Below are positions 26,412 to 55,390 of a stretch of DNA of 64,000 bases, in pieces. The notes under the pieces were generated by a model. That model did no database searches, was not told where the DNA came from, and saw only the letters and a list, made by a program, of their open reading frames with translations. The stretch's first letter is position 1. Each line of letters opens with the position of its first letter. Source of the DNA: Schmidtea polychroa (lineage: Eukaryota). The position numbers and the translations under genes are program-made. The DNA is taken from positions 8,496,001-8,560,000 of the forward strand of contig CM097885.1 in assembly GCA_044892525.1 (NCBI GenBank), read 5' to 3'.

Positions 26412-26612
26412 AAAATAAAAATATCAATACAGAGTACAATAATTAAAATAGGAATTGTCAATAAATTGTCATAATAAAAATATATACATTGTCACAGGGG
26501 ACAATGATTGTCAGTTATGTATATCCATTTGATTGTTTTTGGATTGCATTGAATTGGACTGTTGGTGAATTTGGGGAATTGGATTGATAGTGTTGAAGCA
26601 TTGGAGCTTTGC

Positions 26613-28592
26613 CTATTTCCGTTCCTCAGCGAACACATTAACTCTATATTTGTTTGGCCCTGTTCTGTAATACTTATCTAGGGTAAATGTAGTGATGGGC
26701 CTACCCTCATCATCTAACATTCCTCCCTGGGCCGTTAAGATAATGTCCGCATTATCTCTTATACTACGTACCAGCTCGATTTTACTGTCTTTTATCAGCA
26801 TCCTCGTTTTGTTAAAACCTTTTGCCAATGCGAGATTTATTGTGTCGCCATCATTTATAAGCCTTCCAAAATGTCGGGTTAATTCCTTCTGCGTAATTTG
26901 CTCCTTCTTCTTTGGTATAATAAAATTGGGTTCCTCCTCGATTGCGATATCCGGTTCTGGTCCTAATTCGTCTATGTCCATATTTTCCTCTTCTTGCTCG
27001 TCGATTGAGAAATATTCCTCATCTGAGTCGAGGTCGCATTCCATTAGTTTTCCTGAATGGAATTTTGGTTCCTGTAATTCCAGTTTGACTGTTTTTTCAG
27101 GTTTTTGTATTCTCTCCTCTTCGACGAATATCACATCGTCATCACTTTCCATTAACTCATCTTCGAAGGTTCTGCGTGTCACATTCTTATTAAATTTCAA
27201 TTCGATTTGAGATGGTTCTATATAAATGTCTTCATCATCATCCGACATATCCTCCATACTACTTTCTTTAATGGGATATAATTGATCTTTTATTTGTTGT
27301 TCACTGAAGGCTTCTGAATCCCATTTAACACCTTCTTCCCATTGATTTTCTACGATTGCGTATATCACTTTGACGATCATTGTGGTTTACCATGCTGGGA
27401 ATGGTTCTGGTTCACGTAACATTCTATTTATACGTTTATCCTTGTCCCACTTTCTATGATGTCTGATTACCTGGTATGCCAGGTTGGACAATTTTATCTT
27501 GTGTGGCGCAACGTTTTTGACGTACGAGCACATAAATATATCTTCTGACATTTCTCTAACTCCCATAACATTGTACAGATCTAATATGAGAGCTCTGAGT
27601 TTCCCGATGATGTCGAATCCTACGACTATTTTTCCGCAAAGTAACTGTTGGATTTCTACCAGTGCTTCGTATTCGTCTTTATTTCCGATGATATTTTCCT
27701 TGTTGGCCTTCGTCTTCTCTGGATAGTAATGTAGTACTTTCGTTCTAGGTGTAATTTTCTCATCAAATATTGTTACACCTTTAAGATTCCGTAAGCTGAC
27801 CTCCACTGGCCTTAAGTTACTGTTGATGTCACACACTAGTTTCGCATCTACAAACATCACCAGATGATGTCTTTCTGCAGTGGACAGTTCCTTGTGAGTA
27901 AATGACATTTTTCTCCTGACGAAATCTCCATGCATATAGATGTTCGATTTGATGAGTTCCAACTGCTGAAATGGGTTTGGAATGGTGGGTACATATAATA
28001 TTTCGATTGCTATAACACAGGGTAGGCTGTTCATTTGGACTATCAGTTCGTTGTAGTCGTTTGGGACACTCCGATCATTTTTTATAGTTTTTATTGTTAC
28101 GGTGCAATTGCTCGTGGTGATTATTGGTATTCTTTGTTGGCATATTGCTACCTCTGTTTTTGTGATATGAAATAGGATTCGATGGGGCACTTCTTTTCTT
28201 GTTCTTGCAGCCTCCTCTGCTTTGGGGAATCTGTCATATGCTCCAATTAATTCTCGTAGTTTGACTCTTCTTGCCTCGTTAAATTTGACAAGATGCAATT
28301 CCCTTTCTTCTATCTCGATTTTCATATCATTGGGAATGCATACCTGATTTGGGAAACTGCGTATTGTAATAGGACTCCCATCAGTGCATATTTTATTTTG
28401 CAAGTTTTTATAAAAGCTGCCATAATGTTTCTGGAGCATGCAATGGTATTGGACATTTGATTTGGGTTTGAATTGTTTGCTCTGGGAATTGGATTGGTTG
28501 GATTGCATTTCACGCTTCGTTCTAAAACTAAAATATAAATTGACATGTTCAATGCGCATTTGAGGTCTGTCCTCATACGCTATCTTATACAT
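26613..28592 (-). pseudogene. Retroelement accessory ORF: DEDDh (REX4/ISG20-like) exonuclease fold plus acidic tail; one in-frame stop at 27387-27389
   Basis: The two ORFs are in frame (FPAW*TTMIVKVIY). VMFVDAKLVC...VEVSLRNLKGVTIFDEKITP...IQQLLCGKIVVGFDI..KLRAL parallels REX4 VALDCEMVG...RVSIVN..G.VLYD.YVKP...LLKGRILVGHAL.NDLKAL. Confidence 0.65.
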
Positions 28593-28593
28593 A

Positions 28594-29122
28594 TGTTACG
28601 GTGAAAGTAGATATTGTGGCAAATGTACACATTTTCCGGTAAATGTGCACATTAGCCTCCTCATTTGGGTAATGTGCATTCAACTAACATTTACAATTTC
28701 AAATAAGGGAAATGTACATTGAATTTTCGGTTCTTGTTTGATATATCAATAAAGACCATATACTCCGAGTTTATCCGACAATATATTCTGTCCCCCTATG
28801 GGTATTGCTGGCAAGGGTACATGTTGCGACATGTTGAATGTGACCAGTACCCTTGCTAGCAATACCCATAGGGGGACAGAATATATTGTCGGATAAACTC
28901 GGAGTATATGGTCTTTATTGATATATCAAAATACTCTTATTTATAAATTAACTAAAACATTGGATATTTATATATTTAATTTTAATTTAATTTTAAGTGG
29001 GGGGAAATATCAAACAAGAACATACATATACATTATATTCAGTTCACTTATACCTAACGTTTTGGGAAATGTACACATTTTACGGTAAAAGTGTACATTT
29101 CCCAAGATTGTACATTTACCGA

Positions 29123-29126
<4 letters not shown>
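28594..29126. mobile_element. Non-autonomous TGT...ACA element (Ginger-like termini) containing a long hairpin
   Basis: Imperfect TIR TGTTACGGTGAAAGT versus TGTTTCGGTAAATGT, subterminal AAATGTACACATTTT motifs at both ends, flanks CATA and TATA. Confidence 0.55.
28737..28930. repeat. Inverted repeat: 84-bp arms, one mismatch, 26-nt spacer
   Basis: 28737..28820 is the reverse complement of 28847..28930. Confidence 0.97.

Positions 29127-29206
<80 letters not shown>
29127..29206. repeat. (TA)n microsatellite
   Basis: About 40 TA units. Confidence 0.98.
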
Positions 29207-29210
<4 letters not shown>

Positions 29211-29262
29211 TAAATATGTGATTTTAATTTTTATAAATATCATTGACCATATTTGTAACTCA

Positions 29263-30090
29263 TTATACTGTTTTGGACATTGTATATTCCCCTGGTATAT
29301 ATTTATCCAAATGAAAATGCCCTGGTACACTTCTGACCAGTCGGTGCCGATACCGCTGTCTTTTCCATTTGTACTTTTTATAAACTTGCACACTAGTAAC
29401 AATTGCCAAAATTGCGAATGCTAACACACTTGTGGCTATTACGTAAAAAGGCCATTGTGGCTTACTTGCTTTCTTTTGAAAAACTTGTAATTCATTCCAG
29501 TTATTTATAATTATCGGTTTTCCTGTAGGTAATTTTATCAGTTTCCTATCTGACTGTCTTGGATTTTTCATTATCTATTTGTCTAACAGCTTTAAGTGTC
29601 GTTTTTCTATATATATTCGTTATCGTTTGTGATAATGGTTGTGTGGATATTGAATCTATAGTCATAGTTGTTATGCTGGTTGTTGATATATTTTTCCCTA
29701 TTAGTATTTTTACTCTAGGTCTGTTTATTGTGGTAGTTTTTATTCTCTTGCACCTTATCTGTGATGTGTCAATTAAGGTATTCCATTGTGCACAGAGTGT
29801 GTAATTAGTGTTAGGTTTTAGACATATGAATTCAACACTATCTCCTCTTTCAAATTCATCAGTTGATCTATTCTCAATTTTTCTCATAAGTTTAGGTATA
29901 TTGTCCCTAGTTTCTAGATATAAGTCTCTTATTGGTGATCTATTTAGGTTATATACTTTAATCTTATACGGTGAAATGTTGATTAGAATATCTTCAGCCA
30001 TGTGTTCTACTGAGTGTATGTTTTCATTGTTTATTTCTGTTGATCTACACAACCCTATAATTATTAGAAATGTCGTTGCCATCATTAGTG
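29263..30090 (-). pseudogene. Post-integrase type I membrane module: signal peptide, FN3-like domain, Thr-rich stalk, TM, basic tail (one frameshift at ~29560)
   Basis: MMATTFLIIIGLCRS, then LKPNTNYTLCAQW (FN3 LxPxTxYxV motif), TTSITTMTIDSISTQ, and WPFYVIATSVLAFAILAIVTSVQVY followed by KKYKWKRQR. Confidence 0.6.
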
Positions 30091-31223
30091 CTTTTTGTGA
30101 TCGTAATCCATATTTGTGAGGTGGTTTTTCTACTAACTCTGTTTCTGCTAATTTGTATCTATTAACATGTACTATTATAGGATCTTCATTTTTATGTTTT
30201 TGTAGATGCAGGTTTTCATGTACTACTTTTACTACTTCGTATGGTCCTTTAAATGGTCTTGCTAATTTAGTTGTTTTGCCTTTACCTACTTGTGGAGACA
30301 TAAGTCTTACCTTATTTCCCACTTTAAAATTATGAGGTTTGCTATTTTTATCGTAATCTGCCTTATATTGTTCTTGTCTAAATTTAACCTTTAAATTTGC
30401 AACTTTATATACCTCTTGTCCTCTCTCTTGCATTAATGTTACATAATCTGGCGCATCTAAATATTGTGATACTCGAGGCTCAAAAATTGTATCAATCGGT
30501 GTCGCAGGCTCTCTTAAGAACATTAGAAAATATGGTGAATATCCCGTTGTCTCATTGGGTGTGATATTATGAATGTATGTGCATTGATTAACGTATTCAT
30601 CCCAATCATTTTGATTTTTTCGCACAAACACTTAGCAATGTCCTATTGAATCTTTCTACTAACCCATCAGTTTGAGGGTGGTATGCTGTTGTGTTTATTT
30701 TATGCATGTTAAATATATTAGCTACTCTTTTTATAATTTCACTCATGAAATTTTTCCCTTTATCTGTTAATAGTTTTCTCGGTGTACCGATTTTAAAGAT
30801 TATTTTTTCTACAAGTAATTTAGCTACTCTTTCTGCTGTTTCATCTTTAGTAGGAAATGCCTCTGCCCATTTTGTAAAGTAATCGCTAAAAACTAGTATG
30901 TGTTTATTCCCATTAATTGTTGTGGGTAATTTACACAAAAAATCCATTGGTGATGTTGTAGCTGGGATTGGATGTAAAGGTGCTTTAGTTTTTGTTCCTG
31001 TATTTTTTCTAGTTGCGCATATTGTGCATGCATTACACCATCTCTTAACATCCTTTTTCAAATCGTCCCAGTAATATTTTTGCATCAATCTGCTTGCTGT
31101 TTTCCTACTTGATAAATGACCTCCTAGAGCACCATCGTGATATTGTAATAGAAGAATTTGCCTTAATCTCTGTGGTACTGCTATTAATTGTTTACCGCTA
31201 AAATCTTCAATAACAACTAACAT
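30091..31223 (-). pseudogene. Gypsy integrase (HHCC zinc finger, DDE core, GPY/F); frameshift at ~30620
   Basis: YHDGALGGH...CNACTIC, then MDFL...SDYFTKWAEAFP...TDKGKNF...YHPQTDGLVERFNRTL, then TTGYSPYFLMF and RPFKGPYEV. Confidence 0.95.
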
Positions 31224-31325
31224 TTTACAGATTTTATACTTTTGGTTAGTTCCTTTTTTATTTCTTCTCTAATCTTGAAGAGTTCTGGGTCTTTCATTTG
31301 TTACTCATATATTTCTATTGGTTTT

Positions 31326-33746
31326 TCAGTTACTAATGCAAAAAACTTCTAGTGCTCCTAACTCTGGAATTCGTGATAATGCATCTGCATTCCTGTTTAT
31401 TCTACCTGGTTTGTATACAATCTTTATGTGCATGTCTTGTATTTTCATTGCCCACTTTAACAGTCTACGGGATGTATCTTTATGTTTCCATAACACTTCT
31501 AATGGCTTATGGTCTGTTCGAATTACTACTTCAGTTCCATATATGTATGGTTTAAATTGTTTTAATGCAAAAACTATAGCATAACATTCCTTCTCAATTG
31601 TTGAGTACCTAATTTGTGCTCCTTTTAATGTTTTGCTTGCATAAGCTATTATATAATCTTTACCCTTTTCCTCTTCTTGTCCTAAGACTGCCCCTACGGA
31701 CTTCCCGCTGGCGTCTGTCATGACAATAAACTGTTTTTTAAAATCTGGGTACCTTAGTATCGGTGCTGTTATTAATTTTTCTTTTAGTTGGTCAAAAGCT
31801 TTTTGATGTTCATCTTTCCATTTCTTTTGTGGCTTGTTAATTTTATTATTAATATCCTGCACTATTAACACTCCTTTACTTTCTCCCTTTGTTTTAACTC
31901 CTTTAGTTAATTCGATTAGTGGTGCTGCTATTTTTGCATAATCTTGTATAAATTTACGATAATATCCTGTAAGACCTTGTTGTAATGTTTTTGGAACTGG
32001 AAATTTTTTAACTACTTCAATTTTATCGGGATTAGGTATTATACCATCTACTGTAACTATATGTCCTAAAAATAATGCTGAAGGTTCTGCCCATTTACAT
32101 TTAGTGGGTTTTTTTTTAATTCTCGCTTTTCTCAGTCTTTGTAATACATTTGCTATGTCTTTTAAGTGTTCCTCAAATGTTTTTGACGATATTAATATGT
32201 CATCCATATACACTGCGCAATGTTGTACATCTACTAATACTGTATTTATTAAACGTTGAAATGTTGCTGGCGCATTAGTTAACCCAAAAGGTAATCTTGT
32301 ATATTCATGTAAACCGTCCTCAATCACAAAAGCAGTTTTTTCCGCATCCCCTTCTTCCATTTGAATTTGCATGTAGCCTTTATTTGCATCTATTACTGTG
32401 AAATACTTAGTATCCCTAAGTTTATCATATTGTTCTTGTGCTCTCGGGAATGGGTAAGAATCTTTTACTGTTACGTCATTTAATTTACGATAATCAATGC
32501 ACATTCGAATTTCCCCATCTTTCTTTCTAACTGGTACAATAGGTGATGCCCATTGTGAAAAACTTTGTTTTATTACGCCTGCCTCTTTTAATTCTCTAAT
32601 TTGTCGCTTTATCTCTTTCCTCAGTTTATATGGTACACTATAGGATCTCTGTTTTATTGGTCTAGCATTCCCAGTATCAATTACATGTTTGATAATATCA
32701 GTATCTCCTAAATCAAATTCGTGTTTTGCAAAAACATCACTATATTCGTCAAGTAATATTTGTAGTTGTAGTTGTTGTGTTTCGTTTAGATAATTATTAT
32801 TTATTTTAATTTTATCATAAAATTTAATATTATTCGCTCTACTCTGTTCGACCATTCCTTCACTGACATCACTCGTCATCGACATCTCACATACTTCAAA
32901 TGTTTGCTCTAATTCACCTTTGAACAACTTTCCCAATTTTGTACCTTTATGAATTTTTACTTTATTCCTTTCGTAATTCGCGATTCTTATTGGAATTATC
33001 CCATTATTTGGAACTACACACTCGTCTGTTAACATTACATTATGATTTCGTGATATTGCCGTTTCAGGCTCGAAAATGAAAGTGTCCTCACTTTTAACAT
33101 TAACTTTTACTGGAATTATATGATCACTTTGATATTCTAATTCGAATGTCTCTAATGCAATTACCTCAGTAAATCTTGCGTCTTGATATATTGCTTTCCG
33201 TTTAACTGTACTATCCGTTAAATCGATTACACAGTTTCTTAACCTTCTTAGTATGTCCATCCCAAGGACGCACACGCATTTACATTCTGCTACTACCTTG
33301 AAGACATGTTCAACCACTTGATCTGAAAAGTGGACTGTTAATTCGATATCGCCTTTCAATGGTATGTAATGTGATGATAATGAAATTACTCTATCTCTTG
33401 TACTCACGATATTTTTCTTTTGATTTTCTGTTAACTGATCTTCACGAATCATAGAAGCTGCTGCTCCTGTGTCACATAATGCCTTTATTATCGTATTATT
33501 TATCACTATTTTTAGCTTAGGCCTTGCTTCATTTAACCTTTTTAATAAATCGTCAAGTTCTAACCCGTAACATCCATAAGTTTTCCTTGGAACACAATGA
33601 CAATTACCATTTTCACCTGGGATTCTAATTTCAATATTATTTCTCAATTCTGTCAATTGTTCTCTTTGATTATCATATAACCCAATATGTGGTTGCTCAA
33701 TATTTTCAGATCTGTTTGTGTCGTCCTCTTTCTCATTGGTGATCAT
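31326..33746 (-). CDS. pol: Gypsy Pol: aspartic protease, reverse transcriptase, RNase H
   Basis: LCDTGAAAS; WASPIVPVRKKDGEIRMCIDYRKLN; RLPFGLTNAPATFQR; YMDDILI; TDASG; YSTIEKECYA; TDHKPL; NADALSR. Confidence 0.97.
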   Translation of the reverse strand: MITNEKEDDTNRSENIEQPHIGLYDNQREQLTELRNNIEIRIPGENGNCHCVPRKTYGCYGLELDDLLKRLNEARPKLKIVINNTIIKALCDTGAAASMIREDQLTENQKKNIVSTRDRVISLSSHYIPLKGDIELTVHFSDQVVEHVFKVVAECKCVCVLGMDILRRLRNCVIDLTDSTVKRKAIYQDARFTEVIALETFELEYQSDHIIPVKVNVKSEDTFIFEPETAISRNHNVMLTDECVVPNNGIIPIRIANYERNKVKIHKGTKLGKLFKGELEQTFEVCEMSMTSDVSEGMVEQSRANNIKFYDKIKINNNYLNETQQLQLQILLDEYSDVFAKHEFDLGDTDIIKHVIDTGNARPIKQRSYSVPYKLRKEIKRQIRELKEAGVIKQSFSQWASPIVPVRKKDGEIRMCIDYRKLNDVTVKDSYPFPRAQEQYDKLRDTKYFTVIDANKGYMQIQMEEGDAEKTAFVIEDGLHEYTRLPFGLTNAPATFQRLINTVLVDVQHCAVYMDDILISSKTFEEHLKDIANVLQRLRKARIKKKPTKCKWAEPSALFLGHIVTVDGIIPNPDKIEVVKKFPVPKTLQQGLTGYYRKFIQDYAKIAAPLIELTKGVKTKGESKGVLIVQDINNKINKPQKKWKDEHQKAFDQLKEKLITAPILRYPDFKKQFIVMTDASGKSVGAVLGQEEEKGKDYIIAYASKTLKGAQIRYSTIEKECYAIVFALKQFKPYIYGTEVVIRTDHKPLEVLWKHKDTSRRLLKWAMKIQDMHIKIVYKPGRINRNADALSRIPELGALEVFCISN

Positions 33747-33755
33747 TATTTCACC

Positions 33756-35670
33756 CTATTCCCTTCGACTTTTCATCCGTTTGATTTCTTTATCGTGCTT
33801 CGCAGTGATCAAATATTTGGCTATGAATGGACATAAACATGCTATCATTTTATATGAATTACCAAAAACTTGTCTTAGTTGTCTTAACGAAACTAATGAT
33901 GAGCAAATCATTTTCAATAGTGCTACTGTATAATATATACCCAATATAGTGGAAAACGTATTTCCGAGAATCGCAAAATATCCCCATATGCTGTATAATG
34001 CTCTATACACAACTTTCTTGAAGTGCTCTTTTGATAATAATACATCAAAGTTGTAATTCCCTCCATAACTATTCTCGATGATTTTATTTACCATAATAGA
34101 AAGAACCTTTTCTTTTACATGAGGAAACAACATATGTTTTCTGGCGCTCTCTATCGCCTCTCTCGTATACATCCCATTGTTATCCATTTCGTTAACTTCC
34201 TGAAATTCTAACTTTTTCTCCAGTTCAGTTAATTCTAGTTTTTGTGGTTTAGTCGCTTCTTTTCTATCTGACATTGTAATCCACATATCATCATTTATTT
34301 TGTATAACGGATCTAATAGATTAGTACATTTATCAATTTTTGTCGGAACATAGTCTTTATCTGTTAATATCCTTGTTATTGGTTGGAGGTATACAGTTTC
34401 CCCTTTATACACTACTGGTAACTCGTTTGTGCACTTATTATTCGTTGCTAAAGATACGCTAACCGGTTTACACTGAAATGTTTGTATCACTTCACCGACA
34501 AATCTTGCAAATGTCCCTTTCTCTGCAAATAAAATTGGTGCCATTAAATCTGGGTTTGTGACTGCAACCGCCATCTTTGTTCTAAATATTTCTCTATTAA
34601 GTTTACAGTCGTTTGCAATAGTTGCTTGGTATACTTTGTCTAATTGTACTAACTGATGATGATAAAAATAGTGGATTTTATTATTAAAATATGACGCTAG
34701 CTTGACATCGAATTTGTCTATTTTCGATTTTGCCTCTTTAATTTCACTTCCGCTGATATAAATTCCTTCATAATTTGTTTGTATGACTGCTTTTCCACAT
34801 TTAATACTTTCACCTTTTCCCACAAATCTCATCGCTTCTGTTTCAGAATCTGACATGTATAATATACATTGTATATTGTTGGTGTATCTCTCTCTTGAAT
34901 TATCGTTGCTCGTCGTTTTTGGTCTTTGATGTTCTTGGATTCTACATCCGTGAACTGTGTACCTCGAATTGTTCTGAATTTCAGTGTCTTTAGTTTAGTT
35001 AAATGGCATTCATATTGGTTTACTTTGTATATGATCATTGACTTGCCTGTATCACAGCTTGTCTCATCTAATGTACAGAACTTATGTGTCATCACTTTCT
35101 TTGATGAACTATCAAACGACGCCTTGAATTTCCTTAATTCAATATAATATTGTCTTCTCACTACAATATTGTCTGCCACATGCCCCCATATTTTATACGT
35201 TCCTCCTTCACAATATCCTCCCGTTGATGACCATCTAACGACATTTACTAATTGCCTTACTCGTGCTCCTACCTGAGCATTTAACTCAAATCCATCCGGC
35301 GTTTTTATCTTTTTTGTTTTAAATGCATTTTCACATTCGATTGGTGCTATTATTATCGCTTCTGGTGCCCATGTTGGAGTTAATATTGTTCTTCCTATTT
35401 TATTACACACAAAACTTTCCTCTGAATATTTAACGATACATTCTCCTGCTTCAGTGTGAATGAAGTCAGACTCTTGATATATGTGAAAAATCTTTGGATC
35501 TGCCACAATTAATTTTGTTGGATTAGCCTCTGGGCAATTTTCTACATCTAGTAATCAATATTTCTGTCCCCACTTGGGATTCTGACAGTCGTACGCTATG
35601 ATCGCATTATTTCCTTTTATCAGATCTAACAATAACGTTATTACTATAATTACTATTGACATTGTCGACT
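33756..35670 (-). pseudogene. env: Chuvirus/gB-type (class III) envelope glycoprotein lying upstream of pol; in-frame stop at 35555 and frameshift at ~34850
   Basis: Signal peptide IVIIVITLLLDLIKGNNA, then IIAYDC..., Y*LLDVENCP, GYCEGGTY, GEVIQTFQCKPVSV...CTNELPV.Y.G..VYLQPITRIL, and the TM region WGYFAILGNTFSTILGIYYTVALLK...QVFGNS. This is the motif order of chuvirus-like glycoproteins. Confidence 0.85.
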
Positions 35671-35789
35671 TTCTTTCTTTTTGACTTGGTTTCTTAGTTG
35701 TTTTATTTACTAGATTTTTTACTGTCTCCTCCGTGTCATCTATTTCTACATTAATATTATCTTCTACGCTTTCCTTAGCACTTTCGATT

Positions 35790-36437
35790 AGGCTCTCATC
35801 ATACAGTATTTTCCATCCTCCCTTTAATTTCATCCATAGCATAGCATCTATCTTTAGTTTATTATATATCATTTTAGCAATATTTTCTGTTTGATTCTTT
35901 GGATTCATTCGCAAAAGTTTCTTGTATCTTGCTATTAAATATGCCATTGACGTAATCACTTTATCCCGATTGACTCCTGTTGTCAGGCCCGGCGTGAGGC
36001 GGGTACGATGCGTGATTTTCACGCAGGCGCCACGGCGGAAAAATACAAAGGCGGCAAAATTGTACAGAAATTTGTTATTTTCATAACAATTTCCATTCTA
36101 TTGTTTAATAACTAGTCCAATTTGAACAATATTATTCCATCTGTGAAAAATATTTATGCATTTATCGTTTTTTTTACTCTTATTATGGAATGCGAAGGCG
36201 GTAATATGCAATTTTCACACATCATCTGAAACTCTAGCGCCGGTGTTGCCTGTTATGAATAATATGTTTAACACTGTCCCTTCATTTGCTTCCTCTGCAC
36301 TCAATTCTCTAGTCTCTTTCTCCATTAATTAAATCTTTTTAACTATATTTTCTATTAACGCTGATGGTTTTGCTTCCGGAAATCGTCTCATGTTCATTGC
36401 TTTAATTAACTCTGTTATCATATTTATATCTTTATCA
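35790..36437 (-). pseudogene. Bcl-2-like domain in the retroelement polyprotein, split by a MITE
   Basis: After removing 35984..36248 and one TSD: VLNILFITGVNRDKVITSMAY...ENIAKMIYNKLKIDAMLWMKLKGGWKIL, aligning without gaps to the Bcl-2 BH1-BH2 span. Confidence 0.65.
35984..36248. mobile_element. hAT MITE inserted into the Gypsy ORF
   Basis: Imperfect TIR CAGGCCCGGCG / CGCCGGTGTTG, 8-bp TSD CCTGTTGT / CCTGTTAT. The reading frame is restored on removal. Confidence 0.85.
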
Positions 36438-37200
36438 TCATCCTGACTTTTTTGGAACTTCCTGTCTCATATTATTTGCAATATTTCTTAAACGTTCTGC
36501 TGTCTTTCTGTCATCTGACTTTTCAGCTATTTCAGATTTTCGAGGCCTCCCTCTACCTCGTCTCATCGTCTCTGCATCCTGCATATTTGCTAGTTTCGCT
36601 ATTTTTTCTATTGTCTCATGTAAATTGTCATATTTAGTATCGATAGGTTTAAAGATTTCATCGCTAACTGTTGGTGACTTCATTGCCCCTCCTGAAGAAG
36701 CATCCCATACTCTAAATAATTTATCATAGTCATTTTCGTCGTTTATACTCAATTCTACAGATGGAATTGATGTATCAATTTCATTACTTTCTTGCCTTTC
36801 TATTACGGCAGAAATCATATTGTTCTCAATGACGTTTACCCCATAGTCGATTATATATTCGTTATTCATCATTTTTACACCGTTAAAATACAGTTTCACT
36901 TTATCATTATCTCCCAATTTCTCGGGCCAATTAGCTCTGGCCATCTGTTTCACTTTATTCACTTTTGTGCAAACATGTACCCCTGTACTACGCATAAGTG
37001 TTCTCAAAAGGTCCTTTGCCTCAATAGTTATATTCAATGACTCATGTAATTTCTGATTTTTTCTCACAAATTCACCATAACATTTTATCATTTCTTTCAA
37101 TTTTATTTCTAATTCAAATACTCTTGTCTTTTTACCATTAATGGTATCAAATTTCTCAAAAATTCTAAGTCAATTCCTTCGACTTGAACTTTATTCATTA
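36438..37200 (-). pseudogene. N-terminal part of the retroelement polyprotein, function unknown; contains an AT-hook-like RRGRGRPRK
   Basis: 220-aa ORF colinear with the rest and joined to the Bcl-2-like part by a frameshift in an A run at ~36450. No gag capsid or CCHC motif recognised. Confidence 0.55.
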
Positions 37201-37299
37201 TACGCAATGTCTCATTATAATTAAAGTTATGATAGGTGTTTAATAATAATAACAATATCAATAATGATAAACGGCAAATGTACCTTGATATCTTTATAA

Positions 37300-39125
37300 A
37301 ATTATAGCTTGGGGGTCATGTAGGAATTTTAAGAGTTATCATTTTAAAATCACATAAAAATCTGAATTAGTGAAATTATTGATAAATATATAATTTTAGG
37401 GGGGGGGGGTCACATATACACACACATATATATACATACATATATATACATATATAAGTAGTCTATATTAGTGTAATTATTGATAAATATATAATTTGAG
37501 GGGAGTAATTTGGGAAATTTAAGAATTATAATTTTAAAATCAATATATATATTTAAGTAGTCTGTATTAGTGTAATTATTGATAAATATATAATTTGAGG
37601 GGGGTCATTTAGGAAATTTACAATTTATATTTTTAAATATAATATAAGTTGAATATATATTAAGTTAACCTAATCTACCATACTTAGATAATGATTAATG
37701 ACTATGATTTTGAGGGGGGTCATTCATAAAAATTTACAATTTACATTTTTTAAATAAAATATAAGTTAAATATATATTAAGATAAGCTAATTTAGTATAT
37801 TTAGGAGGTGTTGATGACTATATGGTTTATGGGGGGGGGTCTTTGATGAAAATTTTCAATTATAATTTACCGGTAATCTAATTTAAGTATATATATATAA
37901 AATAATCTAAATTAATGGTTTTAGGTAGCGGTTAATGGTTATATGAATTGAGAGGGTTATTTATGAAAAAATTTCTAAATTTCTATTGTAAAGGTAATGT
38001 AAGTTAAATATACATGTAAAATAGTCTAAATTACTACATTTAGATAATAATTAATGGTTATGTGCTGTGAGGGGTTATTTAATTTGATAACTGTAAATAT
38101 ATAAGTTAATTAATTACTATATGTATTGTTCTCGATTAATGTATAGTTTGAGGGGATTACTTATGAAAAAATGTAAGTTATTCTTTTCCGAATTTCAAAT
38201 ATACATATATAAGTTAGATTATGAATCTGAACATTTCTTTCGACGATTACGTAACTTTGGGGGTCGTTTATGAAATATTTACAACTTATTATGAGGTTAT
38301 AGATTATATTTTTTATCGCTAACGTAGTTTATATTTTATAATTTATGGCCAAATTAAGATTATAATTTATACTCTTACAGCTAATACAAGTTTATAATTT
38401 ATATTTTTATGAAATTAAATTTATTGTTTATATTTTTACAACTAATATAATTTTATAATTTATACTTTTAAGTTTATAATTTATATTTTTATGAAATTAA
38501 GATTATAATTTGTACTTTTATAATTAACTTAGAGTTATAATTTATAATTCTATAATCAATATAAGTTTATAATTTATATTTTTATGAAATTAAGATTATA
38601 ATTTGTACTTTTATAATTAACTTAGAGTTATAATTTATAATTCTATAATCAATATAAGTTCATGATTTATATTTTGAAGAAATTGAGATTATAATTTATA
38701 CTTTTATCAACTTTTAATAAACTTAGAGTTATAATTTATAATTTATAGTCAATATAAATTTGTAATTTATATTTTTAGGAAATTAAATTTATAATTTATA
38801 CTTTTATAACTAATTATAATTTATATTTTTATGAAATTAAGATTATCATTTATACTTTTATAATTAACTTAGAGTTATAATTTATAATTTTACAGTCAAT
38901 ATAAATTTGTAATTTATATTTTTAAAAACTTAAATTTATAATTTATACTTTTATAACTAATTATAATTTATATTTTTATGAAATTAGGATTACAATTTCT
39001 GCTTTTATAATTAACTTAGAGTCATAATTTATAATTCTATAATCAATATAAGTTCATAAATTATATTTTGAAGAAATTAAATCTATAAATATAATTCTAT
39101 AAATATAATAATTTTATGAAATTGA
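37300..39125. repeat. AT-rich tandem arrays (diverged units with G runs, then a ~27-bp TTATAATTTATA minisatellite)
   Basis: TTTGAGGGGG motifs recur over 37300-38270. TTATAATTTATA(T/C)TTTTAT units run over 38330-39125. Confidence 0.8.
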
Positions 39126-39457
39126 GATTATCATTTATTTTTATGGGTTTACAATTTTTATTTTTCATAGTTAGTTTAGAGTCTATTCAATTTAAAATCC
39201 AAGTCTTGCCGATACGCATGTCGAACACCTTTATGAATACTACCACTGTTAATTCAATCATTTTAAAAAATCTTTACTTTACACTATTACTAGAAAATTT
39301 ATTTAATACATTTATAAATCTAGATGCGACAAACTTATAGGTAGAGTTGGTTCTTGATGATATTTAACCGTCTACATTAATTGTGATTTGAGTATGGAGC
39401 TTTACTCCGTTTATCATACATAGGGTAATGTATTAGTGTTGATTTTTAGTGTGTACG

Positions 39458-46176: not shown

Positions 46177-46531
46177 TTCCGATATTATTAGTATGTATAG
46201 TGATAGCCAATCTGGCGGTGAATTACCATATTTTATTGGTAAACAGTACGGGTCAGGTTGGTTAAAAACAATAGGGAGATTTGCACTTCCTATTCTTAAA
46301 CGTATTGGTAGTTTTGGCATGAAAACTGCTAAAGATGTGATTATGAATGAACAGAAAATATTACCATCCCTAAAAACAAATGCTTTAGCTGAGTTAGGGA
46401 AGGTTCTACCTGGAGTTGCTGGTATGTTTCAAAAAGATACACCTCCAGCCCCAGCTCCAAAACGTAAAGGACATGGAATATCGCGTATAAACAAACGAAT
46501 GAAAGGACATGGAACTATATTTGCAAAATGA
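46169..46531 (+). CDS. Polinton small core/cement protein (PW/pX-like)
   Basis: QSGGELPYFIGKQYGSGWLKTIGRFALPILK pattern and a basic C-terminus. Overlaps both flanking capsid genes (ATGA overlap with the major capsid gene). Confidence 0.75.
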   Translation: MANSDIISMYSDSQSGGELPYFIGKQYGSGWLKTIGRFALPILKRIGSFGMKTAKDVIMNEQKILPSLKTNALAELGKVLPGVAGMFQKDTPPAPAPKRKGHGISRINKRMKGHGTIFAK

Positions 46532-47751
46532 TTTGTGGTAAATCCGAATTATGTATATTTGATAGACCATCGCTCCAGGCTGTAATAGAATTTGGTGCCT
46601 TTGAGGAAGTTTTTCCTATGAATTCAATTACTGATAGTAGAAATGATATCGAGTTTTATATTAATGGTTCGCAAACTGAATATTTAGATTTGAACGATAC
46701 TTTATTGACTGTTCAGATCAAGGTTGTAGATAAAGATAGAAAGATTTTGGATGCCAATGCGGATGTATTACCAAACAATTTCATGTTTCATACTCTGTTT
46801 AAAGATGCAGTCTTGGGATTTAATAATATCAAGATTGAGGGCGGAAATAATACATTCATTCACAAGGCTTTGATAGAAACTATTTTAAATTACAATTCAG
46901 ATACTAAAAATACCTGTCTTACACCTATGGGTTATGCAGCAGCAGATGATGAAAGAAAAAAGTGGGTTAAAGGTTCAAAAGTATTCACTATGTGCTCATC
47001 ATTACAACTTGATTTTATGGATCAACCGAAATATTTACTACCGGGAGTTAATGTACATATTAGATTGAAAAGGTCCGATTCTGCATTGTCTCTTACTAGT
47101 GCAACTGGTGCACCAATATGTCAATTAGTTGATGCAAAATTATTGGTGAGAAGAGTTCGAGTAGACCCGTCAGTATTAGCTAATCATCAATTGGGTCTTA
47201 ATTCAAAACATGCAATTTATCCATTAAAAACAAAGGAAATTGTACAATTTGCTATTGCTAAAGGTGCTTCATCATTCTATAAAGAACAAATATTTGGTGA
47301 CAGAAGAATGCCTAATTTTATTCTGGTAACATTTCAAAGTGAAACGCAATATAATGGATCGTATACTGCTTCCAGCTCAATTTTCAAAACCTTTGGTGTT
47401 ACTTCATTGACTTTGTCGAAAAATACTGATTATAGAGAAACATATACTCAAGATTTCGAGAATGACAATTAGTGTGCGACATATATGCAGAGTATTGTTA
47501 GAAATCTTGGTTATTTAGATAAAAACTTAAATTGTGGAATAACTCTTGAGGAATTTAAAAGCAAATATCCATTTTTCACATTTGTTTTAGCTCCCGATTT
47601 TGATTTAAATCAGAGTCAATTACCGCAAAATGGAAATTTACGACTGGATATAAAGTTTGCAAAGGCCATTACTGAACCAGTACATGTTATAATATATGGA
47701 GTATTTGAAAATGAAGTTCAAATTACTGCAAATAGAACCGTGTTAGTATAA
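46528..47751 (+). pseudogene. Polinton major capsid protein (double jelly-roll, hexon); one in-frame TAG at 47470
   Basis: KSELCIFD...IEFYING...YLDLNDT...QPKYLLPGVNVHIRLKRS...GNLRLDIKFA. The ORF at 47485 continues in the same frame. Confidence 0.9.
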
Positions 47752-47829
47752 ATGTATACAGAAATATAGAAAGTTGTCATGGAGTAAGTTTTTCAATACT
47801 GTTTAATTTATTAAAGTAGTTCTGTTCAG

Positions 47830-48162
47830 GTCAATAGAATTGGAAAACAGATATTGGGAAATAAATTTGTAGGAGTTTTTCCTCTTGATAAAATCCCATA
47901 TTTAGATGTGAATCAAGCCATAATCGTCAATACTCAATCGTCTCATCTTGGTGGAGAACATTGGATTGCTATATATATGAAACCTAGTAATATATTCGTG
48001 TTCGATCCAATGGGTTTCTATTACCCTGCTTTGTTGGTATCAAAACTACAAACAATGGGGAAACCTATTGTATATAATAAAACAATGTTTCAAAATCCCT
48101 TGACACAAACATGCGGTCAACATTGTTTAGCTTGGTTGTTGTATAAAAAATTTGATGTTTAA
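47830..48162 (+). CDS. Adenain-family cysteine protease
   Basis: FVGVFPLD...IVNT...GEHWIA...FDPMG...FQNPLTQTCGQHC, with the catalytic H, D, Q and C intact. Confidence 0.92.
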   Translation, partial: VNRIGKQILGNKFVGVFPLDKIPYLDVNQAIIVNTQSSHLGGEHWIAIYMKPSNIFVFDPMGFYYPALLVSKLQTMGKPIVYNKTMFQNPLTQTCGQHCLAWLLYKKFDV

Positions 48163-48188
48163 TAAATGTATTTTGTATCCTTTGTTGT

Positions 48189-48195
48189 TGTTATT

Positions 48196-48255
<60 letters not shown>

Positions 48256-48297
48256 TTATTATTATTATTATTATTATTTTTATAATTATTATTATTA

Positions 48298-48337
<40 letters not shown>

Positions 48338-48352
48338 TTATTATTATTATTA

Positions 48353-48386
<34 letters not shown>

Positions 48387-48425
48387 ATTATTATTTTTAT
48401 TATTATTATTATTAATATTATTATT
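48189..48425. repeat. (ATT)n microsatellite
   Basis: Long TTA/ATT run. Confidence 0.95.
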
Positions 48426-48505
48426 TTTAATAAAGACTATACAATCATTGTGCATGCACAAAGTCATGACTAACAAAGATATGCAATCCCATTTGATACC
48501 ATTTG

Positions 48506-48589
48506 ATTGGCTGATAGAGGAAAAAGTATTCAGGAATGTGTCTTAATTCTGATTGGTTGAGACATGGAAATATTCCTGTTCTATATAAA
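48506..48589 (+). promoter_or_regulatory. Pol II promoter of the spliced pPolB gene: two inverted CCAAT boxes and a TATA box
   Basis: ATTGG at 48506 and 48552, both in TGATTGGyTGA context. TATATAAA at 48582. ATG at 48648. Confidence 0.6.
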
Positions 48590-48647
48590 CATTGACAAAT
48601 CTAAAATTTGTCATAATTATTCGTAAATTTACAAATTTTAAATTAAA

Positions 48648-49181
48648 ATGGACGCTGATTTACACAATATTTTGAATGCCATGTTGATGGGTGAAAATGG
48701 TAAATTATTTAGTTATTATTATTATTATTATTATTTATTATTTTAGAGAATTTATGGTACCAAGTGACCGAAGATGATTCAATTTTGAATGTTGATAGGA
48801 TTTTCGGTAAATTTAAATATTTTAATTTTTATGAAATTATTATTTTATTTAGAACCTATTATAATTAGCGACGATGATGATGTCGTGTTTATTGGGCAAA
48901 ATGATGCCCCGGATAATGATGCCTTATTTGTTAGGCAAAACAATGTTTTCAATAATCAAAGTAAATTTATTTTATTTTAGTATATTATTTTTTAAAAATC
49001 ATTTTAGTGTTTAATGTTGACATGGACGCCCTAATTAATAATGATGAGGAAAACAATATGGAAAATGCCCTCACTTCTATTGAGGAGAATAATGCTCACA
49101 TTTCTATTGATGAAAATAATGCCCTCACTTCTATTGAGGAGGTAGCTGATGAGGAATCTGATTCCGACCAGGAATCACAAT
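48648..49181 (+). CDS. 5' exons of Polinton pPolB (48648..48699, 48747..48806, 48853..48960, 49008..49181), spliced to 50288
   Basis: Three 46-47 nt GTAAAT...TAG introns plus a GTAAGC...ACAG intron (49182..50287). All are phase 1 and together give an open frame running into the ORF at 50347. Confidence 0.8.
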
Positions 49182-49571
49182 GTAAGCATTTATTTATTTT
49201 TATATTTCTTTAACAAAATTTTTAAAATTTTCTTAATATTTTTGTTTAAACATTTGCATAAATCTTATTCGTAAAATTATTATGTTTTTGAATTATTATT
49301 ATTGTAATTATGACGAAATTATGAAGAAAATACTATGATGGAAATTATAAAGAAATTACTATGATGAAAATTATGAAAATACTATGATGAAACTATTATG
49401 ACGAAAATGAAGAAAATTATGAAAATGTTATATTGAAATTATTATAACGAAAAATAGAGGAAATTATGAAATTATTATTTTGAAATTATGCAAACGTTTA
49501 AAAAAAAGTGATTAAGAAACTATAGTTTTAAAATATTCCTTGTAGTTTGCAATAAGCAACTACATTAGTTA

Positions 49572-49572
49572 A

Positions 49573-49642
<70 letters not shown>

Positions 49643-50011
49643 TATAATGATAATATATTATTTTAATGATAATAATATATCTTGTAGTCTGCAGTGAGCA
49701 TGCAGCTGCATCAAACTAATTATTTATTATGTAATAAATACCCTTTATTAAATGTAGTCTGCATGCAGCTGCATCAAACTAATTATTTATTAGGTAATAA
49801 ATACAATCTTTAAATGTAGTCTGCAGTGAGCATGCAGCTACATCAATAATAATAATAATAATAATAATAATACTAATATTTTTATTCCATACATATACTC
49901 TCTTTATAATAATAATATAATTTTAATATTTTAATATGTTTAGTTAGCATGCAACTAAAGACTCTTATTATATAAACATGTAGGTTACAGTGAGCATGTA
50001 ACTACAGAAAC

Positions 50012-50085
<74 letters not shown>
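49572..50085. repeat. (AAT)n tracts interleaved with short palindromic motifs inside pPolB intron 4
   Basis: AAT runs at ~49572-49640, ~49845-49871 and ~50011-50085. Confidence 0.9.
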
Positions 50086-50087
<2 letters not shown>

Positions 50088-50287
50088 TCCCTATTATAGT
50101 TTACAAGACTTTATTAATATTTTACAATTATTAATATTTACTTCATTTTTATAATGTATTTAAATGAAACATATATCAATAATTGTAAAATCCTTATAAG
50201 AACTAAATGTTAAATGCGTAAAAGAAATATAAATGATATATAAATACAATTTCATGATTAATATTAATTGATAAATATAATTAACAG

Positions 50288-53200
50288 GCAAATTTTATCC
50301 ACATTACTGCCAGGCATCAACTGGTCACTCAAAATTATGTCACAAAGTGATGAAAAAATATTATGGTTGTAAATTTTATGGCATCAAGTACTATATATGC
50401 CCAATATGCGAGACTTCCCATAGTATTAAATATTTAGAGTTTTACAGTATACATAAATCCCATTTAAATCAGTTCTCTTTAAATAAAAAGGATTTATTTA
50501 ACAAACTGCGAAATACCTCAAAACCTGTAAATAATACAAAACCTAATAAACCTGTAATTAATATTACAAAACCTGTAATTAAAACTAATGTAAATAATAC
50601 AAAACCTGTAAATAATATTACAAAACCTGTAAATAATATTACAAAACCTGTAAATAAAACTACTACAAAACATATAAAACCTGTAAATAATATTACAAAA
50701 CCTATAATTAATAATGTTATTAATGTAAATAATAATTTAAAAAGACCTGCTGTTAGTATTGGGTCTGATGCTCCCTCTAAAATTAATAAATTAGATCAAA
50801 TAACTGACAATGATGTGGTTAATAATATTCAAGTAGGCGGTTCAGTCGATATTGACGATGAACCTGAAATCGAAATTGATTTTAAGGGGGTTCGAAAGAA
50901 TATACGATTTAATGTAGAGAAGGATAACATCATTCAAATAACCATAACCGATAAAATCGTTAATAAGTTAAATCATGAAATAAACAGAATGGGGTCGGTG
51001 AAAATACAATTCTCCGTATTGATTCAATTTGAAAAAGATGGTGAAATTAAAGATAATTTCTTCTCGAATAGGGCAGAGGCTTTTTCAGTTAGTTTTCTAA
51101 GTGAGGGGGTTCACAAATTAAATAATAAAATAGAAAAATTCACATATTTGGGTAGTGGATGGCGGGTTGTTAAAATCAAAGAAATAGATTTTATATTAAC
51201 AAAATTTACACATATGAATAGGCTAGCTGGACATAGTTATATCCATTAGTAAATGCATTAGTAAACGTTAAAAACACTGATGATATGTGCTTTATATATA
51301 GTATTTTAGCACTTTTAAAACGTAATGTAGTACATATAAATAGAAATAGAGTTAGTTCCTATCAAAATTATCTTGACGAGTTAAATTTTGACCCCATTTC
51401 CGACTGTCCAATGAAATTATGTGATATTCCTAAATTCGAGATGAAAAATAAGGATTTAAATTTAGCAATAAATGTTTTAACTTATAGAACGACCTCAGCT
51501 AAGCCTTTTGAAAATATAGTTGACGATAATTATATTCCACATCATCCCAAATTGGATATAATTCACCGATCTAAGGTTATAGGTGGTGAACCCCTATACT
51601 TACTTTTATTGGAAGACGGTGATAATTTTCATTACACCGCAGTTTTTAACTTACAAAGATTAATGAATTGTCACTCTAGCAGTGAATGCGGCGTTAGAAT
51701 TAAAGTGAACTGGTGCCCCCATTGTCTCAATGGTTTTCGACATGAAAAAGCATATGATATTCATGTTGCACTTTGCAGTAAGAACCAGATATGTACTACT
51801 TTATATACCCTACCTAAAGATAAAAATTTAATTTTTCAAAATTATGCGAAAACCATAACCCCACCATTCGTGATATATGCAGACTTTGAATCAATTTTAC
51901 CGGGGGATATAATACACCATCAAAAGCATTTGCCAATAACAGCAGGTTTATTATTAATAAATAATTATAATAACTCCAAATTTTATTATGAGTTTGTTGG
52001 GGATGATTGCATCTTATCTTTCTTGCGTAAGGTGGAGGAAATTGCTATGACAATTGTCCTGCCATATTACGAAATTAATGGGAAAAAGCCCATGCAAACC
52101 TTGTCTTTCGCTGAAGAGCGGGCCTTTCGTGATTCCAGAACCTGCTACCTTTGTAAAAAATTTATTAGAAATAGAGTTAGGGATCATTATCACTTTTCAG
52201 GTAAGTATCTTGGTGCTGCCTGTAGGAAATGTAATGTTTCGCGACGAATTCAGAAACATTTACCTGTGGTTTTTCACAATTTGAGGGGGTATGATCTTCA
52301 TCATATTTTGAAGTATAGTTTGAATAATTTTCCTTCTTGGGAATTAAATATTATTCCGACCACTACCGAGAAATTCATCTCCCTCATAGTGTATATTAAC
52401 AAACTGTCTGTTCGTTTTATTGACAGCATGCAGTTTGTTAATTCTTCTTTAGCAAAAGCGGTTAAGACTCTTTCCGATCTGCCTTTAACTTCTTCTGTTT
52501 TCGATGGCGCAATTGTTCGAGCCAAAGGTATCTTTCCTTATGACTTTGCCACATCTCTTGAGGTTCTGGAATCAACTCTTGAATTGCCTCATATCTGGGA
52601 TTCTGTGTCTAATGATGAATATGCATTAGCCCAAGTTATTTGGACTCAGCAAAACTGCAATAACATGTTAGATTACATGTTAACTTACCTTAAATTAGAC
52701 GTGTTTCTCCTCGCAGACTATTTTCAACAATTCCGTGAAAAGGCCATTGCATATAATGGTCTTGAGCCTCTTAATTTCTATGGCATTCCCGGTATGTCAT
52801 GGGCCTCTGCGCTTATGACATTAACGGAACCCATTGAACTTTTGCAGGACATGGAAATGTTTAATTTCTATGAAGGAGGGATACGGGTTGGGTTAACATT
52901 TGTTAACAAACATTATGTTGCAAGTTCTGAAGACACAGAACTCTTGTATATTGATATTAATAACTTGTATGGTTGGGCCTTAAGCCAAAATCTGCCTTAT
53001 GCTGACTTAGTTTGGGTGTATGATGATCTTGATTCTGTCTTGAATGAATGTATGAATGCTGATATCGATAACCTTCCATATGGTTATACAATGGAGGTAG
53101 ATATCGATATACCTGATTGTTTGCATGACTTTCTGAATGATTTTCCGATTGCTCCGGAAAAGATGTGCCCGCCAAATTCTAAAGTTGAGAAGCTGATGCT

Positions 53201-54409
53201 CACGCATTGGCCGAAGAAGAACCATGTTCTTCAATGGCGACTTCTCAAGTTGTATATAGAATTGGGGGCTATTATTAAAAATGTCCATAGAGCAATCAAA
53301 TTTAAGCATGCACCCATTTTTAAATCTTATATAGACAAAAACACTAATTTGAGAGCCAATTCTACGTGTGAGCTGCACAGAGATCTATACAAATTATTTA
53401 ATAATAGTCTGTATGGGAAATCCGTAGAAAACCTTAAAAAACGGATGAATTTGAGGCTATGCAATTCAGCTGAAAAGATGATTGTATATGCTTCAAAGCC
53501 GACTTTCAAGAATTCTATCAAAATTGATGATGACTTGATTGCTGCACATCTCAATAAGGATTCTATATGTTTAGACAGGCCTAGTTACATTGGCCAAACG
53601 GTGCTAGACCTGTCTAAACTGAGGATGTACCAGTTACAGTATATAGAATTGGCTAAATATAGAAATGAATTTAAATGTGAGATAAATATCGTTGCCGGCG
53701 ATACTGACTCCTTTTTCTTGAGGTTAGGCACTGTAAGCTTGACACTCTTTTGCCGGCAATGATTCGTGACAATCTTTTAGATACTTCCAACTATGACCCT
53801 GCACATCCCTTATACTCTAGAAACCTTGATTCGGTGATAGGTAAATTTAAAGATGAAAGTAAAGGTCTAGGGTATAAGGAATGGGTTTTCTTAAGACCCA
53901 AGTGCTATAGTTTGTTAGGGGCTAAAGATCATTTAAAAGCAAAAGGAGTCAGGTTAATAGGTACAGAAATTAGGCACGATTCATATTTAGAATGCTACAA
54001 TAACAACGTAGTATTTTCTGTGCCACAAAGTAGGATAGGGACGCGGAACCACCAATTGTACACATTTAAAAACAATAAAATCGCGTTGTCAAACAACGAC
54101 GACAAGCGGTTTTGGATGGGGAAAAATTCCAGTCTCGCATTTGGTCATTATTTAGCACTAGATGATATAAATGATGATCAAATATTTGAAGAAGTTGGGG
54201 CACTATTCGGAGGATTAAGTCCAGATTTTGTTTCTGGTGATGAGGAAGTGGGTCCACTTTTCAATGGTTTAAGTCCAGATTTCGATTCTGGTGATGATCC
54301 TAATGATGAAATTGATATTGACGATGTACAATTGAGTGACGAAATCGATATTGATGATGTACAATTGAGTGACGAAATTGATATTGATGATGTACAATTG
54401 AGTGATTAA
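50288..54409 (+). pseudogene. polB: Protein-primed family B DNA polymerase (terminal-protein region, endonuclease-VII-like zinc domain, exonuclease, polymerase); frameshifts at ~51245 and ~53730
   Basis: GSGW, NVKNTDDMCF, YADFES, CYLC...VRDH.H..G.YLGAACRKCN, FHNLRGYD, YIDINNLYG, KLFNNSLYGK, GDTDS, GKFKDE, LRPKCYS, KAKGV, DDKR. Confidence 0.95.
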
Positions 54410-55006
54410 GCGATTTTAATATCTTTTTCCTGTGATAAATTAATATAACTTTGTAAAAACATTGATTTGTGTTGATTTTTATTAATGAAAAGTTTTCGTA
54501 TTTCTTTCTATGGATAAAAATCATTATATTGTGTAATATTATTAAACATTCCTTAAGTGTTTAAACATAGAAAGTATATTAAAAATTGTTTTATTATTGA
54601 AAACTAGTAATGTTGTCACTATGGATTAGGACTTTGTTTTGAGCCATTAAAAGAATTTAAATTTTTATAAAGTTTTATTATTTTTATTTAATTTGATAAT
54701 ACTGTTCATATTTACTTTAGTTTGCAGTGAGCATGTAACTAAATATCTTTGAAAAAAAAAATAATAATAATAATATGAACAGTACCCATGTGACTTGTTG
54801 AGTGTGAGTAGTACCCTTGTGTGCAGTACCCATAGGGGGACAGAATATCTTGTCGGATAGATTATATATGATAATAACAACTTCCACGCGTGCGTTAATA
54901 TTTTAAAAGAAAATATTGAAAATTAAAAAAATAATAATAATATGTAATCAACGATTTAAACAAAATTATATTATTACGTATTCAATAATTAAAACAAAAT
55001 TATTAG

Positions 55007-55390
55007 TTCTAAAAATATTAGGCACCATTCTAAAAATATTAGGCATCGTTCTAAAATTATGACGTAATCATTCTAAAAATATGTGGCATCGTTCTAAAAT
55101 TATGACGTAATCATTCTAAAAATATGTGGCACCATTCTAAAAATAAGAGGCACCATTCTAAAAATATTAGGCATCGTTCTAAAATTATGACGTAATCATT
55201 CTAAAAATACGTGGCACCATTCTAAAAATAAGAGGCACCATTCTAAAAATATTAGGCATCGTTCTAAAATTATGACGTAATCATTCTAAAAATATTAGGC
55301 ATCGTTCTAAAAATATTAGGCATCGTTCTAAAAATATGAGGCATCGATTACGTAATAGTTCTAAAAATATGTCATCGTTCTAAAAATTTT
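55007..55390. repeat. Polinton subterminal tandem array, 18 units of mostly 21-22 bp beginning TTCTAAAA
   Basis: Unit variants TTCTAAAAATATTAGGCA(CCA/TCG), TTCTAAAATTATGACGTAATCA and TTCTAAAAATAAGAGGCACCA. Confidence 0.95.

Follow-up and report, generated by a model that had tools for sequence, protein, structure and literature searches.

Schmidtea planarians harbor giant Gypsy LTR elements known as Burro or GYPSM1 (PMC6431247, after Jurka 2007 and Grohme et al. 2018). In these elements, section 7 of that source (on the authority of Grohme et al. 2018) places a BCL2-like motif downstream of a Ubi2/SUMO-like domain and upstream of an in-frame mononegavirus-type env, and it proposes that this motif meddles with host apoptosis. 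BURRO1 and BURRO4 are described as repressed by piRNAs (PMC8532177), and the IAP of Burro1 has been reported to shield stem cells from caspase-mediated death (Dev Cell 2026 study, as relayed in PMC13465017). Outside retroelements, viral members of the Bcl-2 family are summarized as mostly pro-survival and membrane-bound proteins in which BH motifs may be absent (PMC7022251), and adintoviruses are listed among the carriers of Bcl2 genes (PMC8502044). Our literature search found Bcl-2 cargo in LTR retroelements only for the planarian Burro elements and turned up no experiment on what their Bcl-2-like domain does, although the figures and supplements of Grohme et al. 2018 and of the Dev Cell 2026 study may name the family described below or test its domain.

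The present family shares with Burro, as published, a single polyprotein comprising a gag with a CCHC knuckle, Ubi2/SUMO-like and BCL2-like segments, an env in frame and the order protease, reverse transcriptase, RNase H and integrase (PR-RT-RH-IN), together with a downstream accessory ORF. By contrast with the published Burro, it is ~13.5 kb long with 1.1-kb LTRs (vs. >30 kb), its polyprotein has 3,050 amino acids (vs. 4,873), and it has a single knuckle and an ISG20-like ORF2, with MATH, BIR and ankyrin matches absent from the pieces scanned; of the ISG20-like ORF2 the Burro section (section 7) of PMC6431247 makes no mention. Burro1-like copies of the same genome match the family at ~30% over Bcl-2 plus env and at 39-47% over pol. 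On the basis of size, the family is filed as Burro-related rather than Burro proper.

Like the multi-BH proteins Bcl-xL, Bcl-2 and Mcl-1 (PF00452), the Bcl-2-like domain of the family has gapless BH1-BH2 spacing, a BH2 W..GGW, a predicted helical fold and a hydrophobic segment downstream; unlike them, it has NRDK at BH1, no BH3 Gly-Asp and a shortened helix 3 region, lies within a polyprotein, and would borrow its anchor from env. The Bcl-2 homologs that DNA viruses carry, adintovirus/Maverick Bcl2 among them (PMC8502044, PMC7022251), are likewise divergent and travel as cargo with a mobile, virus-like genome; those are described as free-standing genes, whereas the domain here forms one part of an LTR polyprotein. 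It would share with the Burro1 B-IAP an anti-death type of cargo in the same planarian element lineage, this role being a prediction for the domain, whereas the B-IAP is reported as a RING-BIR caspase inhibitor with a separate ORF and a tested function. The novelty implied by an earlier note on this DNA, which had reported a Bcl-2 cargo in an LTR retroelement, is not supported, because a BCL2-like motif at the same position of Burro is already in print (PMC6431247). What was observed does exist, but most of it had been described before; what is new here is a compact family without MATH or BIR, evidence on selection, relatives without the domain, a weak link to Mavericks in trees, and an anchor hypothesis.

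The copy in the analysed window

The window is a stretch of 64,000 nucleotides from Schmidtea polychroa (GenBank assembly GCA_044892525.1, contig CM097885.1, positions 8,496,001 to 8,560,000 of the forward strand). Its features of interest are as follows, in window coordinates.

26533..37221, minus strand: remnant of a Gypsy (Ty3) LTR retroelement related to Burro, sharing ~93% identity with a full-length natural copy
36834..36920, minus strand: ubiquitin/SUMO-like segment (weak; PF11976 E=0.049), upstream of the Bcl-2-like domain
36257..36436, minus strand: Bcl-2-like domain, N-terminal half (predicted helices 1-4), interrupted by a stop codon at 36329-36331
36249..36256, no strand: target-site duplication, copy 2, 8 bp
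35984..36248, no strand: MITE, putatively of hAT type, 265 bp, multi-copy, just before BH1, with an 8-bp duplication
35976..35983, no strand: target-site duplication, copy 1, matching copy 2 at 7/8 positions
35795..35983, minus strand: Bcl-2-like domain, C-terminal half, with BH1-like NRDK, helices 5-6 and BH2-like W..GGW (PF00452 E=0.0069)
35603..35662, minus strand: hydrophobic signal-like segment ~45 residues after BH2, opening the env region (by hydropathy of the natural copy)
33756..35602, minus strand: env-like fusion glycoprotein of Monjiviricetes/chuvirus type, broken (PF24664 E=4e-70 and 2e-08)
29546..33755, minus strand: pol with protease, reverse transcriptase, RNase H and integrase (Gypsy order) and a C-terminal membrane-flanked tail
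26613..28439, minus strand: ORF2 with an ISG20-like exonuclease segment; in the natural copy this ORF extends into the 3′ LTR

The element lacks gag and the 5′ LTR and retains only the start of the 3′ LTR, and its ORF1 bears seven frameshifting indels and four premature stops in addition to the MITE insertion. It is a dead retroelement copy, unable to make a Bcl-2-like protein. Removal of the MITE had been thought sufficient to restore a domain of ~130 amino acids; this is not so, since the stop codon and a frameshift near 36448, just upstream of the N-terminal half, are also present, and the window holds no open domain of that length. Nor is the domain hidden, as had been claimed, because its C-terminal half alone matches Pfam Bcl-2 and uninterrupted copies are plentiful elsewhere. 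Reconstruction of the window domain is unneeded, because natural sister copies are uninterrupted.

The MITE itself was correctly recognized at 35984..36248: the 265-bp insertion is flanked by the 8-bp duplication with one mismatch (35976-35983 and 36249-36256), belongs to a multi-copy repeat, and is absent from this site in all 55 sibling copies in which it was sought. The 40 MITE copies scored among 299 candidates in the genome are all 94-100% identical, and a duplication of 8 bp, matching at 7-8 of 8 positions, borders 10 of 12 fetched copies. Along with this duplication, short terminal repeats, a high copy number and no coding capacity were found, as in hAT MITEs; the assignment to the hAT type is a probable one, made from the 8-bp duplication and the short, imperfect, CAG-ended terminal repeats. 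A second insertion with inverted ends, at 28595-29127 between ORF1 and ORF2, contains an internal near-perfect hairpin of 84 bp (28737-28930) and is likely another MITE. AT-rich tandem arrays with units of ~93-100 bp (37311-39165) stand directly where the 5′ part of the element is missing.

The uninterrupted family

The genome (781 Mb) was queried with the C-terminal half of the domain, and 150 of the 276 candidates were scored; 11 of these matches sit in open frames of more than 3,000 amino acids, with no stop within the match. The two full-length copies measured are 13,586 and 13,510 bp long, and both have TG..CA ends, 4-bp duplications and a primer binding site starting with TGG. Their LTRs, of ~1.1 kb, are 97.9% and 100% identical, and the family is therefore young. 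LTRs, PBS and PPT accompany the Gypsy order PR-RT-RH-IN. The single ORF of ~3,050 amino acids encodes, in order, gag, CCHC knuckle, ubiquitin-like segment, Bcl-2-like domain (aa 743-864 in the natural copy), hydrophobic segment (hydropathy peak at aa 906-932), env, transmembrane helix, PR, RT, RH, IN and a membrane-flanked tail, such that env lies in frame between gag and pol and is preceded by the SUMO-like and Bcl-2-like domains. Copies fall into two subfamilies, A and B, that differ at ~23% of domain residues, and 37 of 40 A copies and 11 of 15 B copies have the domain in an open frame and free of gaps.

Pfam scans of polyprotein pieces and ORF2 gave no MATH, BIR or ankyrin match, while the same scan found MATH in a Burro1-like copy that served as positive control. 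ORF2 overlaps the 3′ LTR, and its ISG20-like segment (window 26613-28439, minus strand; L023:1498-2397) matches ISG20 in the PDB at E=1.8e-4 and RNase_T/ISG20 clusters of the Atlas at 0.93-0.94; the exonuclease may be inactive, as its first acidic motif looks degenerate (D-A-K). The tail beyond integrase (L023:3-797; window 29546-30050, minus strand) combines a signal-like segment with a stretch that weakly resembles fibronectin III (E=0.06) and a transmembrane helix, and is possibly a second surface protein. Contigs of four sequencing runs cover the region; these are of guessed or unknown type, which is uninformative on transcription.

Probable homology of the domain with Bcl-2

The natural domain matches Pfam PF00452 at E=2.4e-6 in subfamily A and 2.1e-6 in subfamily B (28.5-28.7 bits). 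Three family copies exceed the Pfam Bcl-2 cut-off of 31.4 bits, at 32.2-33.3 bits, and most lie just below it. With a profile built from 10 element copies only, the best 60 of 152 matches were Bcl-xL or Bcl-2 (best E=0.002), and Bcl-xL was aligned from BH1 to BH2 over 70 positions without gaps. An AlphaFold model derived from the elements only is of low confidence (pLDDT 57), and Bcl-2-family chains take ranks 1-18 among 48,161 in comparison with it (best match Z 7.3, rmsd 4.9, 109 aligned). Addition of host Bcl-2 proteins to the alignment gave pLDDT 69, Z 9.2, rmsd 3.1 and 114 aligned, a result that is partly circular. Z values of 7-9 lie in the range for which the fold-comparison tool carries a warning on helical bundles. 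Foldseek with the element-only model gave Bcl-2-family proteins in all matches listed (best E=0.023). The top viral match in the Foldseek searches was an adintovirus Bcl2 at E=0.37, which is a lead only. An HMM of 11 host and Maverick Bcl-2-like proteins scored the domain at 28.3 bits, a value reached by none of 300 shuffles (maximum 10.0).

Searched as a single sequence, the domain gave no match among 31 candidates, nothing at E<=0.001 among 1.84 billion representatives and no usable match in the Atlas. The sole PDB match of a single sequence, ribosomal S8 (E 0.07-0.1), was rejected as chance.

In the profile and fold comparisons, which had been proposed as a check, Bcl-2 proteins ranked first, but no Foldseek row against PDB and BFVD reached E<=0.001. 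The helical Bcl-2 fold was found as a prediction, in low-confidence models. Since profile, fold and HMM searches converge on Bcl-2, the Bcl-2-like domain of the earlier note stands, and all tests combined, none strong singly, make homology with Bcl-2 very probable as judged from profiles and models.

BH motifs and the hydrophobic segment

In the natural copy, GVN at aa 805, NIA at aa 836 and the BH2 Trp at aa 852 leave 28 and 13 residues between them; the spacing claimed to equal that of human Bcl-2 thus holds in an uninterrupted copy, and the alignment with Bcl-xL needs no gaps. The departure of BH1 from NWGR to NRDK, also noticed earlier, is fixed in 54 of 55 copies (39 of 40 in subfamily A and 15 of 15 in subfamily B), and canonical NWGR is accordingly missing from the domain, as it is from several other Bcl-2-like genes of the genome. 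The position of the BH1 Gly, the loss of which disables Bcl-2 and Bcl-xL, is occupied by Asp. The BH2 motif W-x4-GGW lies at the correct distance from BH1 in all 40 A copies and in 12 of 15 B copies. A BH3 motif with Gly-Asp in helix 2 marks pro-apoptotic proteins of the Bax/Bak/Bok type; Gly-Asp was sought in helix 2 in two alignments (A1, A2), and none was found. The helix 2-4 region is short, with a shortened helix 3 region. A complex prediction of the domain with the BH3-like peptide of a Bcl-2-like gene (L029) scored 0.02 against a mark of 0.34, with the alignment unused, and is uninformative either way.

The hydrophobic segment ~45 amino acids after BH2 precedes env and occurs also in three relatives without Bcl-2 (P0002-P0004); it is therefore the signal of env and not a captured tail.

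Selection on the domain

Between subfamilies, dN/dS of the Bcl-2-like domain is 0.11 (Nei-Gojobori; 39 of 40 A copies against 12 of 12 B copies), where the 468 A-B pairs amount to one lineage comparison, are not independent, and come from copies chosen by similarity to the C-terminal half. The corresponding values are 0.17 and 0.30 for the upstream and downstream flanking linkers, 0.14 for the ubiquitin-like segment and 0.03-0.05 for env; within subfamilies, the domain gives 0.08 in A and 0.45 in B. Conservation among sibling copies and dN/dS, both put forward earlier as checks, therefore came out in favor of the domain, which is kept, NRDK included. Purifying selection on the domain is real, as far as these comparisons between copies go, yet it names no function.

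Possible functions of the domain

The window holds a dead, MITE-split copy of a domain conserved in a young 13.5-kb gag-env-pol family. For this domain we favor, at a probability of about one half, the reading that it is tethered to a membrane and modulates the host cell toward survival. A feasible model may be that the domain faces the cytosol within the polyprotein, just before the signal segment of env, and that after cleavage this segment would stay behind as the C-terminal anchor of the domain, in the way that a tail anchor holds cellular Bcl-2 proteins. The anchored domain would then damp cell death during expression of the element, like the reported IAP cargo of Burro1, probably via an altered groove or a non-groove surface. 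Several observations weigh against this reading: most copies score just below the Pfam cut-off and the models are weak; the change of the BH1 Gly to Asp and the further loss of the motif in Burro1 fit a closed groove; the dN/dS of 0.11 is only modestly below that of the upstream linker and above that of env; and the hydrophobic segment also occurs in relatives without Bcl-2.

A Bcl-2 fold with a closed groove could instead act as a non-apoptotic modulator of signaling or innate immunity, as do the poxvirus proteins A46, A52, B14 and K7, which provide the precedent in the review literature (PMC7022251). The fixation of NRDK, the lack of a BH3 Gly-Asp, the short helix 2-4 region and the further decay of BH1 in Burro1 are all compatible with such a protein, as is the company of ubiquitin-like and ISG20-like modules in the same element. 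However, canonical Bcl-2 outranks A52 in fold comparison (Z 9.2 vs. 5.2, for the model made with host Bcl-2 proteins in its alignment), all 40 A copies retain BH2 well, and NF-kB activity is stated by that review to be not found outside poxviruses; we therefore regard a closed-groove modulator as rather unlikely. It is also conceivable that the domain was repurposed as a structural, matrix-like or membrane-binding particle component joining Gag to the signal anchor of Env. Lying after Gag and before the env signal segment of a single polyprotein, it would be made one-to-one with Gag and Env, which would suit this role, and so would purifying selection; yet all three related gag-env-pol polyproteins do without the domain, which makes it dispensable for the architecture, and the BH1-BH2 spacing is kept exactly, so that a structural role seems improbable.

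Scores below the Pfam cut-off, weak models, non-canonical motifs and the silence of single-sequence searches (1.84 billion representatives at E<=0.001, and the Atlas) are what would be expected of a decayed relic kept as a folded spacer, or of a helical bundle resembling Bcl-2 by chance. Such a relic or resemblance is very improbable against the convergence of several searches on Bcl-2, the failure of all 300 shuffles to reach the HMM score, the dN/dS of 0.11 and the persistence of the domain in Burro1. Young, compact and present in many copies, and with no IAP seen in it, the family has the Bcl-2-like domain as the one apparent regulator of cell death among its cargo. It thus lends itself well to the question of whether the apoptosis of planarian stem cells is manipulated by retroelements. 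The copy in the window is, for its part, a dead insertion of an ordinary kind.

Origin of the domain

A homologous domain, eroded to a greater degree, occupies the corresponding place in Burro1-like copies (~23% identity), and gain of the domain therefore predates their split from the present family. In Burro1 the BH1 motif has been lost further, and the domain scores 15.1 bits with the HMM, which none of 300 shuffles reached. No Bcl-2 signal was found in three related gag-env-pol polyproteins from other sources (P0002, P0003 and P0004), of which P0002 and P0003 also contain the ubiquitin-like segment. The proposed capture of the domain as cargo is supported by these three relatives, to judge from which the domain would be an add-on, or was lost in all three. 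P0002-P0004 are Gypsy polyproteins, two of them with extra protease-like domains, and their layout suggests that an in-frame env is not confined to this genome; P0002 and P0004 have membrane-ended tails as well.

Two multi-copy families of Bcl-2-like genes, one intronless and one apparently spliced, reside inside Maverick/Polinton-like elements of the genome (L109-L110, G000:C1:247532001-247552000; L111-L112, G000:C1:34766001-34786000), and these Mavericks carry integrase, packaging ATPase and long polymerase- and capsid-like ORFs. The window contains a Maverick/Polinton-like element of its own (46468-58267, plus strand), with a protein-primed DNA polymerase B (E=4e-25) and a Ulp1-type protease, in which no Bcl-2-like match was found at E<=0.1. 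In a comparison of 20 sequences, Maverick-borne Bcl-2 was among the nearest BLAST neighbors of the domain (27-32% identity, E ~5e-6 to 9e-6). Trees of 13-15 rows, drawn without non-planarian Bcl-2 and with L047 and L058 as first exon only and L041 as one exon, group the LTR domains with the Maverick-borne genes and L040 on long branches (bootstrap 58-80%; 77/79, 58/73 and 80/72, none starred). The phylogeny with host Bcl-2 genes that had been proposed as a check thus yielded a weak grouping with the Maverick genes and L040, but the AU test rejected none of five alternatives that place the domains with host genes (p-AU 0.13-0.23). Domain A scored 20.6 bits with an HMM of seven host-type proteins against 13.9 with one of four Maverick-type proteins. 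Shared descent with Maverick Bcl-2 is therefore weakly supported by the trees, and the HMM scores lean to the host type.

It is tempting to speculate that the Burro lineage took its Bcl-2 from the fast-evolving lineage carried by Maverick/adintovirus elements of this genome, possibly by transfer from a DNA virus to a retroelement, that the gene was placed ahead of the env signal peptide, which now doubles as the tail anchor, and that an enveloped retroelement blocks apoptosis with a working Bcl-2 of viral type; this chain as a whole is improbable. Among the genome's other Bcl-2-like genes, matches to Schmidtea mediterranea Bok-1 (91%) and Bcl2-3 (78%) were found, and seven near-identical copies with canonical NWGR (L029-L035) are clustered on one contig (G000:C4:89.9-90.8 Mb). 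BIR-domain matches are also numerous: at least 150 were scored, mostly in near-identical ORFs of 392 amino acids, and the three BIR ORFs fetched with their flanks all lie downstream of Burro1-like polyproteins.
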